Source: Thermodesulfobacteriota bacterium (lineage in GTDB: Bacteria; Desulfobacterota_D; UBA1144; Nemesobacterales; UBA2774). Taken from it: a DNA stretch of 64,000 nucleotides. The notes below the pieces were generated by a model, which was given only the letters and a program-made list of their open reading frames with translations, did no database searches and had not been told where the DNA came from. Below, piece after piece: positions 33,619 to 45,359 of the stretch. The number at the start of each line of letters is the position of its first letter. The first letter of the stretch is position 1. The DNA is taken from assembly GCA_965216785.1 (NCBI GenBank), contig OZ244197.1, forward strand, positions 2,784,001 to 2,848,000, written 5' to 3'. The translations under genes and the position numbers were made by a program.

Positions 33619-33664
33619 GCGCGCCCGGAGGGATTCGAACCCCCGACCTACGGATTAGAAGTCC
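33619..33664 (-). repeat. att direct repeat: 3' half of tRNA-Arg(TCT)
   Basis: 46 bp identical to 45285-45330 (gcgcgcccggagggattcgaacccccgacctacggattagaagtcc). Confidence 0.95.
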
Positions 33665-33789
33665 TATTTAGGCTAAAATGGCAAGTTACTGATATCAATG
33701 AAAATTGGGTTAAGTTGTTGAATTTCATGGGTAATTTTCCGATACATGAAGTTACATAGGGTTCATGAAAAACTGATAATTCCGGATGG

Positions 33790-33811
33790 TTCTTTGGCTA
33801 TTCTTTGGTAA
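33790..33811 (+). promoter_or_regulatory. Putative integrase arm-type binding sites (left)
   Basis: Tandem TTCTTTGGCTA-TTCTTTGGTAA with an 11-bp period; matches the pair at 45207-45228. Confidence 0.6.
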
Positions 33812-33883
33812 AAAGAAAGGGGCCTTTGAGACAAGGTGTGAGCTCTATGAATTCACATCCTTTGAGTTGTTCTGGACATTTAA

Positions 33884-35395
33884 TCATTCCCTAACCTTTT
33901 TTAAAGAGTATAAAATTACACGTGTGTTTCTACTAACCTCAAATTCTCTTTCCTCCGTTATGCGGTAAAGGCTATTCTTATGTTGATATGAGGATTTCTG
34001 GCGGTTAACAAAATTCTTTTCGCCCAGAACGACCCAAAAATGATCAATATTCTCGAGTGCGCAATATTTAAACAGCATTGAAGGGTCTATTTTATGTTTA
34101 GGAAGTTTGCAGTATTTAAAATTTCCTCTATTGTAAAAATTAAAGCTGGGAAGGTTTAAAAAAGAGATTAGCACAATAGAGGTTTTGCCATAATCTTTTT
34201 CCTTGATATATGAGCCTACTTCTCTCCAATCTTTCCTGGATGGTTTTGTATGGTGAGTGTATAAACCGGATGAAATCAATATTAAGAATGCAATTAGAAT
34301 TATACCGAGAGGCACAACTTTATTTAGTTTTGTTAAAATCAGCGCCGTCAAAATATAAAATGCCGGAGCTGAGCATATTAAATACCGATCAAGGTACATA
34401 GGCTTTATAACCTCCGACATTATCAGAACTAATAGTATTGGAACAAACAGCCAAAGCACTACAAGCAAAGTCTCGCTTTTAATTTTCCAGATCGTCTTAT
34501 ATCCCGAGAAAAATTGTTTAAGCGATTTTAACCATTTCTTTTTCCCGGTAAATAATATGTAGGTTAGTGTTCCTATCAATAAAAATAGGACAGCAATGTA
34601 AAAAGTTGTAGAATCATGAGCTCCGAACGCCGGACTCATAAACCTTTTGATTGTGTTAATCGGTGCCCACGGCCCGGGAGAAGGTATCCAGTTTGGACCG
34701 CCTCCACCGATAGCTTTATTGCTGAAAGAATATATAAACCTTGGGGCAATACCGAGTAATATGATGAACTGACTAAAAACCCATTTAAGAATGATTGGTC
34801 TAAGCGATTTAATTTTGATTAGTACGTATAGATTTTGTGCGGCGATGATGAAAACGCCGAAGTCGTGGCTATAATAGAGCAGGATTGTTGATAATATATA
34901 CAGCGCGGCATAAAAATATGATTTTGAGCGTAAAAACTGGATATAGAAATAAAATGAGACCAGTGTCAGAAATTCAAAAAGACTGTAATATCTAAGCTCC
35001 TGGGAAAAGTGAATTTGGAACACAGACACGGACATAAAAAATGCGCTAATCACCCCGATCTTTCTGTCAAATAAAGTCTTTCCTACAATATAGATCAATA
35101 CAATCGAAAATACTCCGAAAATGACTGATAAAGAACGGGCCGCGACTTCAGAATACCCGAAATTCCCGATCCAGAAGTGCGCAAGAACTAGGTAAAGCGG
35201 GGGTCTCTTACCTGTTAGTATTGAGCTTAAACTTTCATGCGCGACCTCAAGCGTGATAATCTCATCGTACCAGTAAAACTGCTCGCTAAGCCCATGTACT
35301 CTCAAGAAAGTGCCGACAAGCAAAACAAAAAAGAGAAGATAAAAGATCTTACCATTGCTCTTAAAAAAAGAAGCTGTAGCGTTAATAAGTTTCAA
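33884..35395 (-). CDS. GT-C membrane glycosyltransferase (PMT/ArnT, GT39/GT83-like)
   Basis: FLRVHGL..WYDE, PPLY, ARSLSVIFG, FSQELRYYSL, RYLI; polytopic membrane protein. Confidence 0.85.
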   Translation of the reverse strand: MKLINATASFFKSNGKIFYLLFFVLLVGTFLRVHGLSEQFYWYDEIITLEVAHESLSSILTGKRPPLYLVLAHFWIGNFGYSEVAARSLSVIFGVFSIVLIYIVGKTLFDRKIGVISAFFMSVSVFQIHFSQELRYYSLFEFLTLVSFYFYIQFLRSKSYFYAALYILSTILLYYSHDFGVFIIAAQNLYVLIKIKSLRPIILKWVFSQFIILLGIAPRFIYSFSNKAIGGGGPNWIPSPGPWAPINTIKRFMSPAFGAHDSTTFYIAVLFLLIGTLTYILFTGKKKWLKSLKQFFSGYKTIWKIKSETLLVVLWLFVPILLVLIMSEVIKPMYLDRYLICSAPAFYILTALILTKLNKVVPLGIILIAFLILISSGLYTHHTKPSRKDWREVGSYIKEKDYGKTSIVLISFLNLPSFNFYNRGNFKYCKLPKHKIDPSMLFKYCALENIDHFWVVLGEKNFVNRQKSSYQHKNSLYRITEEREFEVSRNTRVILYSLKKVRE

Positions 35396-36351
35396 GAAGT
35401 CCTCCCGTTTACTATGAGAGCTCTCGCCTCGAATAACCCGCCCAGAAGACCGGGGACGATCCGTGTTACAGCAAACACTAGTATTGAGTAAGCAAACGCA
35501 CTGCTATCGCTAACGCCGAAAGTGCCCAGGAGAATTATAAATGAAGCCTCTCTTAAGCCCATGCCGGATATTGATATAGGGATCATCGTTACGAGTACCA
35601 CAAGGGACCTGATCCAGGCAATTGTTATAATCGATATATCAATGTCGATCGACTTTAGCAGAAGAAAAAATACAACTACGTTAATTAGCTGTGAAGCAAG
35701 CGAAATTTCGATCATAAATAAAAGAGTTTTATAAGATAGCTTTCCAAGACCTGATAAGCTGTCAGCGAATCTATTCAATTTTTGAGATTCATATACGCTA
35801 TTCACTAAACTCAATAACCATTTTATGATCCTTTGATTTCTGTCTATGAATAAGAGTAAACAAAAACATGTAAGGCTGATTAAGATAAAAATCATGAACA
35901 GAACGTATATGCTTAAATCTTTAGGAAAACTGAGTATCCAGAAAAATAGGCCTACAAGACACAGGGCCACAGTCGCAAATACTCTTTCCAGAGCGAGGGA
36001 AATGAACGCTTCTGAGAGTTTATTGTCTTTTCTCGACAACTTGTAAAACTTAATAATTCCTCCCGTCACGTTCCCGCCGGGCAGAAAAAGTCCGTAAAAA
36101 ATTGTGCTTAGATTAATCTCAAACGCTTGAAATGTTGATATGTAGAGTCCATTCAGGGCTGAGAAGTATTTTAGCCTGTAAGAAGTTACAGCCCAAGCTA
36201 GAAGAGTAAAAATGACAGCTGGAATCACATAATGTAGTTTGGCGGTTATGAGGGAGTTAAGGACATCCTGAATGTTGATTTTAGTGAAGAGGAATACTAT
36301 TATTGCTATAGCAACTGTAAACCTTAGGATAGTCCAGATTCTCTTGCTCAT
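35392..36351 (-). CDS. Flippase-like membrane protein (lysylphosphatidylglycerol synthase TM/UPF0104)
   Basis: LFLPGGNVTGG, LERVF, MIPISISGMGLREASF. Confidence 0.85.
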   Translation of the reverse strand: MSKRIWTILRFTVAIAIIVFLFTKINIQDVLNSLITAKLHYVIPAVIFTLLAWAVTSYRLKYFSALNGLYISTFQAFEINLSTIFYGLFLPGGNVTGGIIKFYKLSRKDNKLSEAFISLALERVFATVALCLVGLFFWILSFPKDLSIYVLFMIFILISLTCFCLLLFIDRNQRIIKWLLSLVNSVYESQKLNRFADSLSGLGKLSYKTLLFMIEISLASQLINVVVFFLLLKSIDIDISIITIAWIRSLVVLVTMIPISISGMGLREASFIILLGTFGVSDSSAFAYSILVFAVTRIVPGLLGGLFEARALIVNGRTS

Positions 36352-43746: not shown

Positions 43747-44727
43747 TTATAGTTTTGTTTTAGAATCTATGATTTCTCTGATTACATAAGTTGGTTTATC
43801 TACAGACTCATAATAGGTCCTGACTACAAGCTCGCCGATAAGGCCGATAGAGCAAAGCTGGACTCCGAATATTATAAGGAGCGCTCCTAGTAGCAAAAGC
43901 GGTCTATCGCTTAGGTGATAACCGTAGAAGATTTTTAGGAACGAGAGGTAACCAGCAATTATTATACCCAGTAGGAAAGACACGATACCGAAGAGACCGA
44001 ATATCTGAATAGGTTTTGTAGAATAGCCCAACAGGAATTTTACAGCAATCAGGTCCAGTATCACTCTTATAGTTCTCGTGAGACTGTAACTGGAGGTGCC
44101 GGATATCCTGGGGGCATGATTGACTTCAATTTCGCTCACAGATACGCCCATCCAGCTGGCAACGGCAGGTATGAATCTGTGCATTTCACCGTAGAGTTTA
44201 ATGTTCTTTATTACATCACATCTATAGGCCTTAAGCGAGCATCCGTAATCATGAAGTTTTACGCCGGTTAACATGGAGATTATGTAATTAGCGATCTGAG
44301 AAGGTAGACGTCGAGTAAGATAGTCATCTGCCCTTTTCTTGCGCCATCCGCTTACAATATCGTATCCGTTATCAAGCTCCTGAATCAGTTTTTCTATATC
44401 GGCAGGATCGTTTTGCAAATCAGCGTCCATAGTAATGATGATATTTCCTTTTGCCAAATCGAAACCAGCCGAAAAGGCCGAGGTTTGTCCGAAATTACGG
44501 CGTAAACGTATAATTTTCAATTTTTCGTAGCTCGTTGAGAGCTTTTTCATAACTTCAAAACTGTCGTCTCTGCTTCCATCATCAATCATTATAATTTCGT
44601 AAGTTTGCCCAGTTTTAGTTAATACCTCATTTAATTTAGTCATCAGTGGTAAAATGTTATCTGATTCATTGAATACAGGTATTACGATCGATAGTTCTAA
44701 GTCGTTTTTTTCTTTAGAAGTTGCCAC
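43747..44727 (-). CDS. GT2 polyprenyl-phosphate glycosyltransferase (GtrB/ArnC-like)
   Basis: SIVIPVFNE, DDGSRD, RNFGQ, MDADLQNDPAD, LHDYGCSLKAY, HRFIP; two C-terminal TM helices. Confidence 0.9.
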   Translation of the reverse strand: MATSKEKNDLELSIVIPVFNESDNILPLMTKLNEVLTKTGQTYEIIMIDDGSRDDSFEVMKKLSTSYEKLKIIRLRRNFGQTSAFSAGFDLAKGNIIITMDADLQNDPADIEKLIQELDNGYDIVSGWRKKRADDYLTRRLPSQIANYIISMLTGVKLHDYGCSLKAYRCDVIKNIKLYGEMHRFIPAVASWMGVSVSEIEVNHAPRISGTSSYSLTRTIRVILDLIAVKFLLGYSTKPIQIFGLFGIVSFLLGIIIAGYLSFLKIFYGYHLSDRPLLLLGALLIIFGVQLCSIGLIGELVVRTYYESVDKPTYVIREIIDSKTKL

Positions 44728-45206
44728 AGTTCCATCATTCTATATCGTATTTCGGGGTTTTTAAAGTATGCCCTCCTTTAATAAGATCAAGATAAAGAAA
44801 TAATCGAGCCAGAGAAGTAAAGCGTATATCTAGGAAAAACCGGGAGCTAACTCAAATTATTGGCTCACATACCATTGAATAAAAAAACAGAGGAAGATTT
44901 CATCCCAACTCCAGACGTAGTGTGTTGGAAAGTATATGAAGTCTTTTATTTTTGAAGAGTTGGGATGTCAAAAAGCTAAGTTATGATTACCTATAACCAT
45001 TCAATTTACTTTGTAAAATGTATGAAAGTATGTCTATGAGTTCCTGAGGAAATTCGCCACCCCCCGACCAACAGACATTTGTCCGTTGGTTCTACCAAAA
45101 GGGAAATGGAATTATAATTAACCTCTCGTAACTACTTGATATGAAATGAATATTTATTTGCTAATGATTTTGGATCTTGAAAAAAAATACGCTTATTCAA
45201 TTTTCA

Positions 45207-45228
45207 TTCTTTGACTATTCTTTGACGG
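45207..45228 (+). promoter_or_regulatory. Putative integrase arm-type binding sites (right)
   Basis: Tandem TTCTTTGACTA-TTCTTTGACGG; an exact IHF consensus match (TATCAAGTAGTTA on the minus strand) lies at 45129-45141. Confidence 0.6.
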
Positions 45229-45282
45229 AAAAAATAGGATATTTCGAGGGGTCACACAACTAGCTGAATTTATTGGGATAAT

Positions 45283-45359
45283 TGGCGCGCCCGGAGGGAT
45301 TCGAACCCCCGACCTACGGATTAGAAGTCCGTTGCTCTATCCAGCTGAGCTACGGGCGC
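45283..45359 (-). tRNA. tRNA-Arg (TCT)
   Basis: GCGCCCGTAGCTCAGCTGGATAGAGCA-ACGGA-CTTCTAA-TCCGT-AGGTCGGGGGTTCGAATCCCTCCGGGCGCGCCA. Confidence 0.97.

Follow-up and report, generated by a model that had tools for sequence, protein, structure and literature searches.

What kind of element is a block of nine genes packed between a tRNA gene and a copy of its 3' half, with no integrase inside it, and what could its genes make? The question is raised by a contig of a Thermodesulfobacteriota bacterium (assembly GCA_965216785.1, OZ244197.1, positions 2,784,001 to 2,848,000), a stretch of 64,000 nucleotides that we call the window and to which all positions below refer unless another contig is named; in it, tRNA-Arg(TCT) and the distant copy of its end enclose an island of ~11.7 kb. 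We consider the block to be very probably a horizontally acquired, integrase-less island, a conclusion that we hold much more firmly than our reading of its contents. The latter, to which we give a probability of about 0.5, is that the nine genes form one pathway in which a tailored lipid-linked sugar is made, flipped across the membrane and attached on the outside, and every chemical step of it is one that we infer.

An island at tRNA-Arg(TCT)

The intact 77-nt tRNA-Arg(TCT) gene lies at 45283–45359 on the minus strand (ARAGORN; Rfam 74 bits), and its positions 30–75 recur as an exact direct repeat of 46 nt (45285–45330 = 33619–33664), so that the perfect repeat of the tRNA 3' half with which the initial annotation had bordered the block is there in exact copies at both ends. 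The 3' half within the gene forms the proximal att core. The distal core (33619–33664, minus strand) is the displaced original 3' half of the tRNA, because the bases past it match the bases past the tRNA in empty sites of the same genus, and the 3' end of the present-day tRNA is the element's own CCA. The interval between the repeats is filled by nine minus-strand open reading frames (ORFs) of 265–514 residues, which Pfam assigns to GT2, GT4, a SAM methyltransferase, DAO plus DAO_C, three Phosphodiest proteins, LPG_synthase_TM (UPF0104) and PMT_2. Nine co-oriented, AT-rich genes in this order had been annotated before, and the ORF list, the Pfam assignments and the composition (38.0% GC against 46.0% for the genome) all agree with that description. 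The GC content at third codon positions (GC3) is 0.39 in the island and has a median of 0.58 in the host (105 long ORFs in a 300-kb sample of the genome).

Comparison with relatives gave the empty tRNA-Arg site that would be expected of a mobile island. In both same-genus genomes tRNA-Arg(TCT) is followed by a short ORF and a CBS gene, without an island, and the site is also empty in seven further relatives (G003, G008, G009, G012, G015, G018 and G021), which with G001 and G002 gives nine empty-site genomes overall. Some other relatives carry unrelated cargo at tRNA-Arg(TCT), and the cassette was found there in none of the 19 relatives whose locus was read. A second strain, ~1% divergent in the flank, has the island too (public run X5). 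The island thus shows a tRNA 3' repeat at its far end with the tRNA restored, together with an empty site in relatives, as tRNA-targeting islands do, but it has no integrase of its own. The longest stop-free frames in its two end regions run to 41 and 44 residues, leaving no room for such a gene, and tblastn with 14 of the 15 integrase hits of this genome and the cognate integrase of a relative as queries found no remnant of one in the island (best E 0.2). On this point, too, the initial annotation, according to which no integrase ORF fits, was right.

Arm-type sites, leader and the missing integrase

How, then, might such an island have arrived? Each of its ends carries one perfect match to an 18-bp arm-type motif made of two direct 7-mers, the distal one at 33790–33807 and the proximal one at 45207–45224 (both on the minus strand), and these two are the only matches in the whole genome at up to two mismatches. 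The distal arm site is separated from its core by an arm region of ~124 nt (33665–33789, minus strand), which is 72–80% identical to tRNA-Arg and tRNA-Phe island ends in relatives with other cargo; the arm-to-core spacing of ~124 nt at distal ends is constant across relatives. The motif occurs in 18 of 101 genomes of the order, with 34 forward or reverse matches against 3 for a reversed control, and most matches lie at island ends in tRNA-Arg (TCT, CCT, TCG, ACG) or tRNA-Phe; six of those listed have no tRNA context. Twelve motif sites with a tRNA or an att end just upstream were examined for what comes next. Directly after five of them stands a gene of one tyrosine-integrase family (64–75% to a 354-residue protein of the relative G007, itself located at tRNA-Arg(TCT)), so that in integrase-bearing relatives the integrase gene directly follows the site that is proximal here, and after six of them stands a common integrase-less leader; among the remaining arm sites, one is a distal end lying by chance behind another tRNA and one has neither integrase nor leader. 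This arrangement suggests that the motif is the arm site of the G007-type integrase family. The genome studied here has no member of that family. A helper integrase encoded elsewhere in it was considered and rejected, since the best of its 15 tyrosine-recombinase hits reaches 44% and none has the arm motif. We propose that a visiting tyrosine integrase of the arm-matched family (~350 residues, as at tRNA-Arg(TCT) in G007) may have inserted the island, which would now be stranded until an arm-matched integrase returns.

The leader of ~250 bp is present in six copies in five genomes of four genera, with 51–76% mutual identity, the same spacing and the same shortened loop, ahead of unrelated cargo and at three different tRNAs. 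It ends with a degenerate att- or tRNA-like pseudo-core (45045–45100, minus strand; stem-loop at 45071–45089), common to these six integrase-less ends, whose anticodon loop is one base shorter than that of the tRNA and which lies ~124 nt from the proximal arm site, a distance equal to that between arm and true core in distal ends. This pseudo-core could still be functional, or it could be a scar left when a tandem neighbour collapsed. A predicted IHF site on the minus strand at 45129–45141 matches the IHF consensus exactly; exact matches to it occur at 0.09 per kb in the coding part of the island, and the IHF-like bases are conserved in the aligned leaders. That the pseudo-core might act as a structured RNA was rejected because the folding scores of four copies are inconsistent (z of –2.55, –1.75, –0.36 and +0.75), and an Rfam scan returned three tRNAs only. 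Counts of predicted promoters (48 sites against 35.5 expected) and terminators (8 against 7.7) were uninformative.

An element that retains attL and attR and carries no integrase has been described, in the accessible text of the source, as a cis-mobilisable element (CIME; PMC5704250). The island fits this known kind of element because its att ends and arms are kept and the cognate integrase is absent from the genome; like CIMEs and tandem accretions at tRNA/att sites, it has no integration or transfer genes, its nine ORFs all belonging to other families. Relatives show the tandem arrays with integrase-bearing neighbours that further recall CIMEs. In contrast, the island here stands alone, without such a neighbour, its conserved leader with a pseudo-att core is common across genera and tRNA targets, and its cargo is also found in an unrelated tRNA-Gln-type array of another genus. 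Of the initial suggestion of a possibly undescribed mobile module, the combination of cargo therefore survives, and the mobility class, already known from what could be seen of PMC5704250, does not.

One may object that the island is simply the dead remnant of a larger integrative element from which the integrase was deleted once, the leader and pseudo-core being functionless scars. Deletion is the textbook origin of CIMEs in the available part of the same source, the cognate integrase is indeed gone from the genome, the leaders are no more than 51–76% identical, and the pseudo-core, two of whose four copies examined fold no better than shuffled sequence, could be a former att site left by a collapsed tandem neighbour. 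However, no integrase remnant was found in the island; both arm sites are perfect matches to the motif; and the leader of ~250 bp, with its constant spacing and shortened loop, stands in front of unrelated cargo at three tRNAs in four genera. We regard this history as possible, with some hesitation, and prefer a stranded but still mobilisable island.

The cassette in other genomes

The conserved neighbourhood that the initial annotation had recommended searching for does exist. In G018, which belongs to another genus, all nine genes are found in the same order at 62–78% amino acid identity, each of the three AP-superfamily paralogues (AP1–AP3) having its own 70% counterpart. There the cassette is flanked by a repeat of another kind (copies at C14:1-58 and 11370-11450) and forms one unit of a row in which this repeat occurs at least six times and no integrase was detected. 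The end of the row is the orthologue of the gene next to tRNA-Gln(CTG) in the genome studied here, and in G021 the same repeats run from tRNA-Gln(CTG) to that orthologue; the G018 array is thus presumably of the tRNA-Gln type, with its tRNA beyond the start of the contig. As an observation in its own right, these tRNA-Gln(CTG) repeats have in common with the tRNA only the start of the T-loop and its final 10 bases, carry a conserved arm upstream, and constitute a second integrase-less cassette system (L015, L016 and L080, G018:C14:1-40700; L304 and L305, G021:C2:54600-76840); one repeat copy adjoins a 220-residue tyrosine recombinase that is 88% identical to a protein of our genome (G000).

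The order GT2, GT4, methyltransferase, (oxidase), AP, UPF0104, GT-C is kept in G013, G045 and G046 as well as in G018, and is rearranged in G036. In genus g17 of the sister family the cluster occupies one syntenic locus in all three genomes, with varying gene content. Of the 32 other genomes in the family, 3 were found to have AP proteins; for the order the figure is 8 of 101, our genome counted, and many of the genomes surveyed are incomplete. A tree of five cassette genes from seven genomes joins our genome to G018, whereas the host rpoB tree joins G018 to G009, and the host topology is rejected for the cassette (AU p 0.00013); G048, which has no GT-C, was excluded, and in G009 the copy is rearranged, with UPF0104 present twice. 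The cassette's GC3 is close to that of genus g2 (0.28–0.36), compared with 0.58 for the host. Because of this conflict between trees and because of codon use, the donor is likely, though not proven, to have been a low-GC, g2-like relative.

A putative lipid-linked glycosylation core

Three of the nine products are membrane proteins of the kinds from which surface-glycosylation systems are built. The first gene (43747–44727, minus strand, 326 residues) encodes a GT2 of the ArnC/GtrB type, with two membrane helices at its C terminus (hydrophobic windows at 240 and 279), matching ArnC (E 7e-56) and sll0501 (E 2e-47), the latter presumably GtrB, over its full length, with a score below the ArnC family cut-off (228 of 529 bits). 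From these profile matches it is predicted to be a polyprenyl-phosphate glycosyltransferase, and it has the features of a membrane-linked GT-A polyprenyl-phosphate sugar synthase. The flippase-like UPF0104/LPG_synthase_TM protein (35392–36351, minus strand, 319 residues) matches PF03706 at E 6e-42, passes the cut-off of TIGR00374 and has about seven hydrophobic windows. The GT-C membrane glycosyltransferase (33884–35395, minus strand, 503 residues; PMT_2 E 2.7e-7) combines the GT-C fold with an acidic motif in the first outer loop, D44 and E45 being invariant in 53 rows. Its model (pLDDT 86.9) is matched by Foldseek alike to STT3/AglB, ALG12 and ArnT (E ~1e-7 to 1e-6), so that the fold search does not tell these three kinds of transferase apart. 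Many GT-C enzymes could find candidate acceptors in the IPTL-CTERM surface proteins, of which the genome has several, one of them at 29153–30037.

The GT2, the flippase-like gene and the GT-C thus fit a lipid-linked surface-glycosylation system. The Arn operon for L-Ara4N modification of lipid A, whose defining set comprises ArnA, ArnB, ArnD and ArnE/F alongside ArnC and ArnT, was considered and rejected: ArnA, ArnB, ArnD and ArnE/F are not among the nine genes, and the GT2 scores under the ArnC cut-off. Where the initial annotation had seen a trio of Gtr/Arn type, its three components are present, but the flippase is of the UPF0104/MprF type rather than GtrA or ArnE/F. UPF0104 is the flippase domain of MprF and has been proposed, in the parts of the sources available, to be a general lipid flippase (bioRxiv 10.1101/2022.03.11.483950; PMC5898192). 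The multi-component systems described in the accessible text of PMC11127046 and PMC8035078 use GtrA, SMR, MATE or Wzx proteins in this role. With these systems (GtrABX, Arn, GT136 pentofuranose, DprE1/DprE2) the island shares a GT-A synthase, a flippase candidate and a DE-motif GT-C in one operon; it differs from them, as far as those texts go, in having UPF0104 as flippase candidate and in adding six cytoplasmic proteins, among them an oxidase of DAO/GlpD fold that has no SDR partner in this copy.

The cytoplasmic proteins

Hydropathy shows neither a signal nor a membrane segment in the six products in between, if the FAD-binding strand of the oxidase is set aside. The GT4 (GT-B fold; 42534–43739, minus strand, 401 residues; PF00534) finds only generic GT4 structures with its profile, and the class I SAM-dependent methyltransferase (41737–42534, minus strand, 265 residues; Methyltransf_11 E 3e-20) exceeds the cut-off of no function-level (equivalog) family of NCBIfam in the 25 of 50 matches listed. 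The oxidoreductase (40189–41733, minus strand, 514 residues; DAO plus DAO_C) is a GlpD/GlpO-like flavoprotein of a subfamily found in glycan loci. It resembles GlpD and GlpO in fold family, FAD motif and the conserved His, Arg and Lys (H59, R63 and K391, all invariant). Unlike them, it falls far below all GlpD, GlpO and GlpA cut-offs (GlpD 165 of 360 bits), and the Arg that solved GlpD and GlpO have in GVRP/GLRP, which serves the glycerol-3-phosphate substrate site, is absent from all 95 rows, each of which has L, V or I in its place. A housekeeping GlpD was therefore rejected. No glycerol kinase was among the conserved neighbour clusters scanned at oxidase loci.

The three remaining products, of 404 residues each, are NPP-fold proteins of the AP superfamily: AP1 (38914–40128; PF01663), AP2 (37678–38892) and AP3 (36441–37655; PF01663), all on the minus strand, with AP2 51% identical to AP1 and 64% to AP3 and closest to the single-copy relatives. 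AP3, which has a non-canonical second metal site, shows no hydrophobic segment. The AP2 model (pLDDT 95.3) has the NPP/AP superfamily fold and aligns with ENPP6 over 332 residues (Z 29.6, rmsd 3.4), ENPP7 and ENPP4 being tied with it. Searches of PDB sequences with AP, UPF0104 and GT-C sequences or profiles found no close solved relative, and an atlas search returned generic phosphodiesterase clusters only. Compared with the Zn1 and Zn2 ligand set of NPPs, as given in the parts of the PorX preprint (10.1101/2024.05.15.594396) and of PMC9173814 that were available, the active-site columns of AP2 are S11, E43, D180, H184, D223, H224 and H348. The Asp, His and His of the first zinc site are kept as D180, H184 and H348, and conservation over 77 rows is 77 for D180, 76 for H184, 77 for H348 and 76 for H224. 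The Asp, Asp and His of the second site with its Thr or Ser nucleophile are not kept as a set: the first Asp is Ser in AP1, AP2 and AP3, and the nucleophile column holds Glu, Glu and Asp, the Ser/Thr being lost in at least two of the three, given that this column was set by alignment to the sister protein P0111 and is uncertain by 1–2 residues (a shift by one residue would give Ser in AP2 only). In the family at large, near-duplicates included and six outgroup rows excluded, the first Asp is found in 10 of 160 rows, a Ser/Thr/Cys nucleophile in 48, and both together in 1. Thus, the AP proteins resemble the NPPs (ENPP4–7, Xac NPP, PhnA) in the whole fold and the first zinc site, but they are 13–17% identical to them, lack a signal or membrane segment and have kept neither the first Asp nor the Thr nucleophile. 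The 'phospho-decorated' donor of the initial annotation, made by an ordinary phosphotransferase, becomes doubtful with the canonical catalytic set incomplete in all three proteins.

Have these proteins, then, ceased to be enzymes? They could be zinc- and lipid-binding partners of the flippase, in a cassette reduced by the loss of its SDR and amidotransferase and making a simpler sugar. The rarity of first Asp and nucleophile together in the family and the residues of the island trio at these positions speak for such a role, and in the listed rows where the first Asp has returned together with a Glu at column 43, the second-site His is no longer preceded by Asp; the absence of the SDR would suit it too. 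Yet the first zinc site is kept almost without exception, as the counts over 77 rows show, replacement ligands for a metal could come from column 45, which is acidic in 154 of 166 rows, and from D14, kept in all 71 rows with a residue there, and the one-to-one retention of three paralogues in two genera suggests distinct jobs. We consider a purely non-enzymatic role quite improbable and keep to that of zinc enzymes.

A model for the pathway, and its weighing

Let us assume that the nine products act in one route. The GT2 would load a sugar onto undecaprenyl phosphate and the GT4 would extend it; the GlpD-like flavoenzyme would then oxidise a hydroxyl group, either on the lipid-linked sugar or on a polyol arm, and not free glycerol-3-phosphate, and the methyltransferase would methylate the unit. 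Most relatives pair the oxidase with an SDR reductase, perhaps for an epimerisation as by DprE1/DprE2, and the SDR is absent in this copy. The three cytoplasmic NPP-fold zinc proteins may carry out the last trimming or maturation step, probably using water bound to the metal and forming no covalent Ser/Thr intermediate, and pass the lipid to UPF0104. UPF0104 would flip the finished lipid across the inner membrane, and the GT-C would transfer the unit to lipopolysaccharide, a surface glycan or a surface protein, the outcome likely being surface conversion, for example an altered phage receptor or charge. There is precedent for tailoring a lipid-linked donor: in the accessible text of PMC11127046, on the DprE1/DprE2 arabinan route, a polyprenyl-phosphate sugar is worked on by an oxidase, a reductase and a phosphatase before it is flipped.

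How tightly the parts of this route belong together can be judged from loci elsewhere, for which we considered the best 49 of 80 genome loci with the oxidase and, in metagenomes, 71 of 75 AP loci that had a called AP gene; the oxidase-locus counts are lower bounds, since loci are cut short and near genomes may be omitted. The oxidase loci span cyanobacteria, KSB1, Nitrospirales, Chloroflexota, ANME archaea and others. Among the best 49, the same GT4 occurs in at least 32, an SDR in at least 34, an asparagine-synthase-like amidotransferase in at least 23, a methyltransferase in at least 23 and the AP family in none. Together with a hexapeptide acyltransferase, the GT4, GlpD-like oxidase, SDR, methyltransferase and asparagine-synthase-like protein make up a widespread uncharacterised glycan-locus core (L164-L212) in many phyla, archaea included. 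Within the order, all 5 oxidase loci that lack AP have the amidotransferase, against 1 of the 7 that have AP, a hint that AP and UPF0104 together take the place of a last tailoring step. The gene after AP is a GFO-type dehydrogenase in 6 of the 55 loci with a next gene and UPF0104 in 37.

This last association invites a different division of labour, in which the operon would serve two pathways: GT4, methyltransferase, oxidase, AP and UPF0104 would make and flip a modified phospholipid, and GT2 and GT-C would use the host GtrA. A model for the former exists in Pseudomonas gpgSDF, where, according to the available part of PMC12713373, a GT4 adds GlcNAc to phosphatidylglycerol, a hydrolase (a deacetylase) matures the product and UPF0104 is the predicted flippase. 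The island is like gpgSDF of Pseudomonas aeruginosa and the MprF/PplT flippase domain in combining a GT4, a maturing hydrolase and UPF0104 in one operon (bioRxiv 10.1101/2022.03.11.483950, likewise seen in part), and GT4-AP-UPF0104 triplets are found as such in L103, L119, L123 and L125. A GlpD-derived enzyme would suit a glycerol head group, the top fold matches of AP2 include the lipid-head phosphodiesterases ENPP6 and ENPP7, and a host GtrA exists. The island differs from gpgSDF, as far as that source goes, in that its hydrolase slot is filled by an NPP-fold protein, no family of the COG3233 deacetylase being among the nine genes, and in the addition of oxidase, methyltransferase, GT2 and GT-C. 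Against two pathways, moreover, GT2 and GT-C enclose the remaining genes and travel along with these in G018, G013, G045 and G046 (rearranged in G036), and the oxidase/GT4 core is found elsewhere in glycan-assembly loci, with Wza, Wzc or WcaJ in at least 12 of the best 49. We find such a split rather doubtful, and continue to favour one pathway for a lipid-linked sugar.

Several observations nevertheless weigh against our view of a mobile one-pathway island. The host has a GtrA-type gene of its own and 11 PMT_2 hits (10 of them above cut-off), 10 besides the island GT-C, so the GT2 and GT-C need not use UPF0104. The GT2 cluster is present in at least 17 and the island's GT-C cluster in at least 2 of the best 49 oxidase loci, so that in most distant loci the core of GT4, methyltransferase, oxidase and SDR stands without this GT-C. 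AP and UPF0104 also occur without any nearby glycosyltransferase (for example L116, L128 and L134), and G048 and L104, the latter within an ABC-transporter glycan locus, have an AP-UPF0104-methyltransferase-GT4-oxidase-SDR set without ArnC-type GT2 or GT-C. No SDR is found in the cassettes of this genome and G018, and the best match in the host reaches 32%. Paralogy could explain part of the conflict between cassette and rpoB trees. Lastly, no joint of an excised or empty site (33664 to 45285, or the reverse) was seen in the contigs of 8 of 24 public runs; contigs drop rare forms, and the absence of excision or circle forms from them is uninformative on excision itself. Public runs with a low share of the island were considered as possible empty-site strains and rejected, their coverage being merely thin. 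That extra enzymes elaborate the donor of GT2 and GT-C, as the initial annotation had it, is consistent with the conservation of the gene set elsewhere; that they are simple add-ons is not, because portable sub-modules occur in loci without that core.

If we allow ourselves to go further, the NPP-fold protein and UPF0104 might be an MprF-like pair of maker and flippase, in which a zinc enzyme without a nucleophile finishes a lipid-linked group supplied by GT4, oxidase and methyltransferase, such operons being traded as integrase-less cassettes between unrelated tRNA-docking systems, with the pseudo-att leader as a working part of a non-autonomous element family. We would call this wider scenario unlikely as a whole.

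Neighbouring genes and other islands

Just upstream of the tRNA and outside the repeat, a GT11 gene and a DUF268 methyltransferase-like gene (45570–47486) are unmatched in the same-genus relatives compared; relatives have separate 5'-type islands on this side of tRNA-Arg(TCT). Two intergenic stretches, 44812–44903 and 46480–46622, have further copies in the genome (G000:1323754-1323847 and 1324490-1324633) as well as in several relatives, and are possibly small repeat elements or RNAs. At 30382–32374, between tRNA-His and the CBS gene, lies an NrfH/NrfA-type cytochrome c nitrite reductase pair; in genus g2 the CBS gene adjoins tRNA-His, so this stretch is a variable slot as well.

Elsewhere in the genome, an island at tRNA-Leu(TAG) (G000:C1:2010966-2027837) has a split tyrosine integrase, its N-terminal part reading into the distal att copy and its C-terminal part emerging from the tRNA, both in one frame, and excision would therefore rejoin the gene; archaeal integrases of the SSV1 type are split likewise. 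Islands at tRNA-Pro(CGG) (109803), Leu(CAA) (1330257), Ser(TGA) (1618859) and Arg(CCT) (1806935) have duplicated the 5' part of the tRNA, with islands on both sides at tRNA-Pro(CGG). Short tRNA-bounded stretches without an integrase hit inside are found at Glu CTC (3.2 kb), Arg CCG (2.9 kb), Ala CGC (1.1 kb) and Met (1.0 kb).

Significance

None of the nine genes reaches an NCBIfam equivalog, only broad models such as TIGR00374 being passed, and no characterised pathway was found to match the gene set, a match being one of the outcomes that the initial annotation had named as refuting its suggestion. The literature search, with most subscription journals and supplements outside its reach, returned nothing relevant on the gene combination or on islands in this lineage. 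The mobility class and the three-part core are known; the combination and the two altered enzyme families appear to be undescribed.

The nine-gene unit is bordered twice, by two different recombination systems, so that a single fragment suffices to clone the whole pathway and assay it. Its solution would tell what reaction is catalysed by a GlpD-like oxidase subfamily whose glycan loci range from cyanobacteria to methane-oxidising archaea, and what chemistry belongs to a nucleophile-less phosphodiesterase-fold family still coupled to a UPF0104 flippase, and the cassette would test whether UPF0104 proteins flip polyprenyl-linked donors. The mobility of the island is ordinary in kind, yet it offers a clean test of excision in trans.

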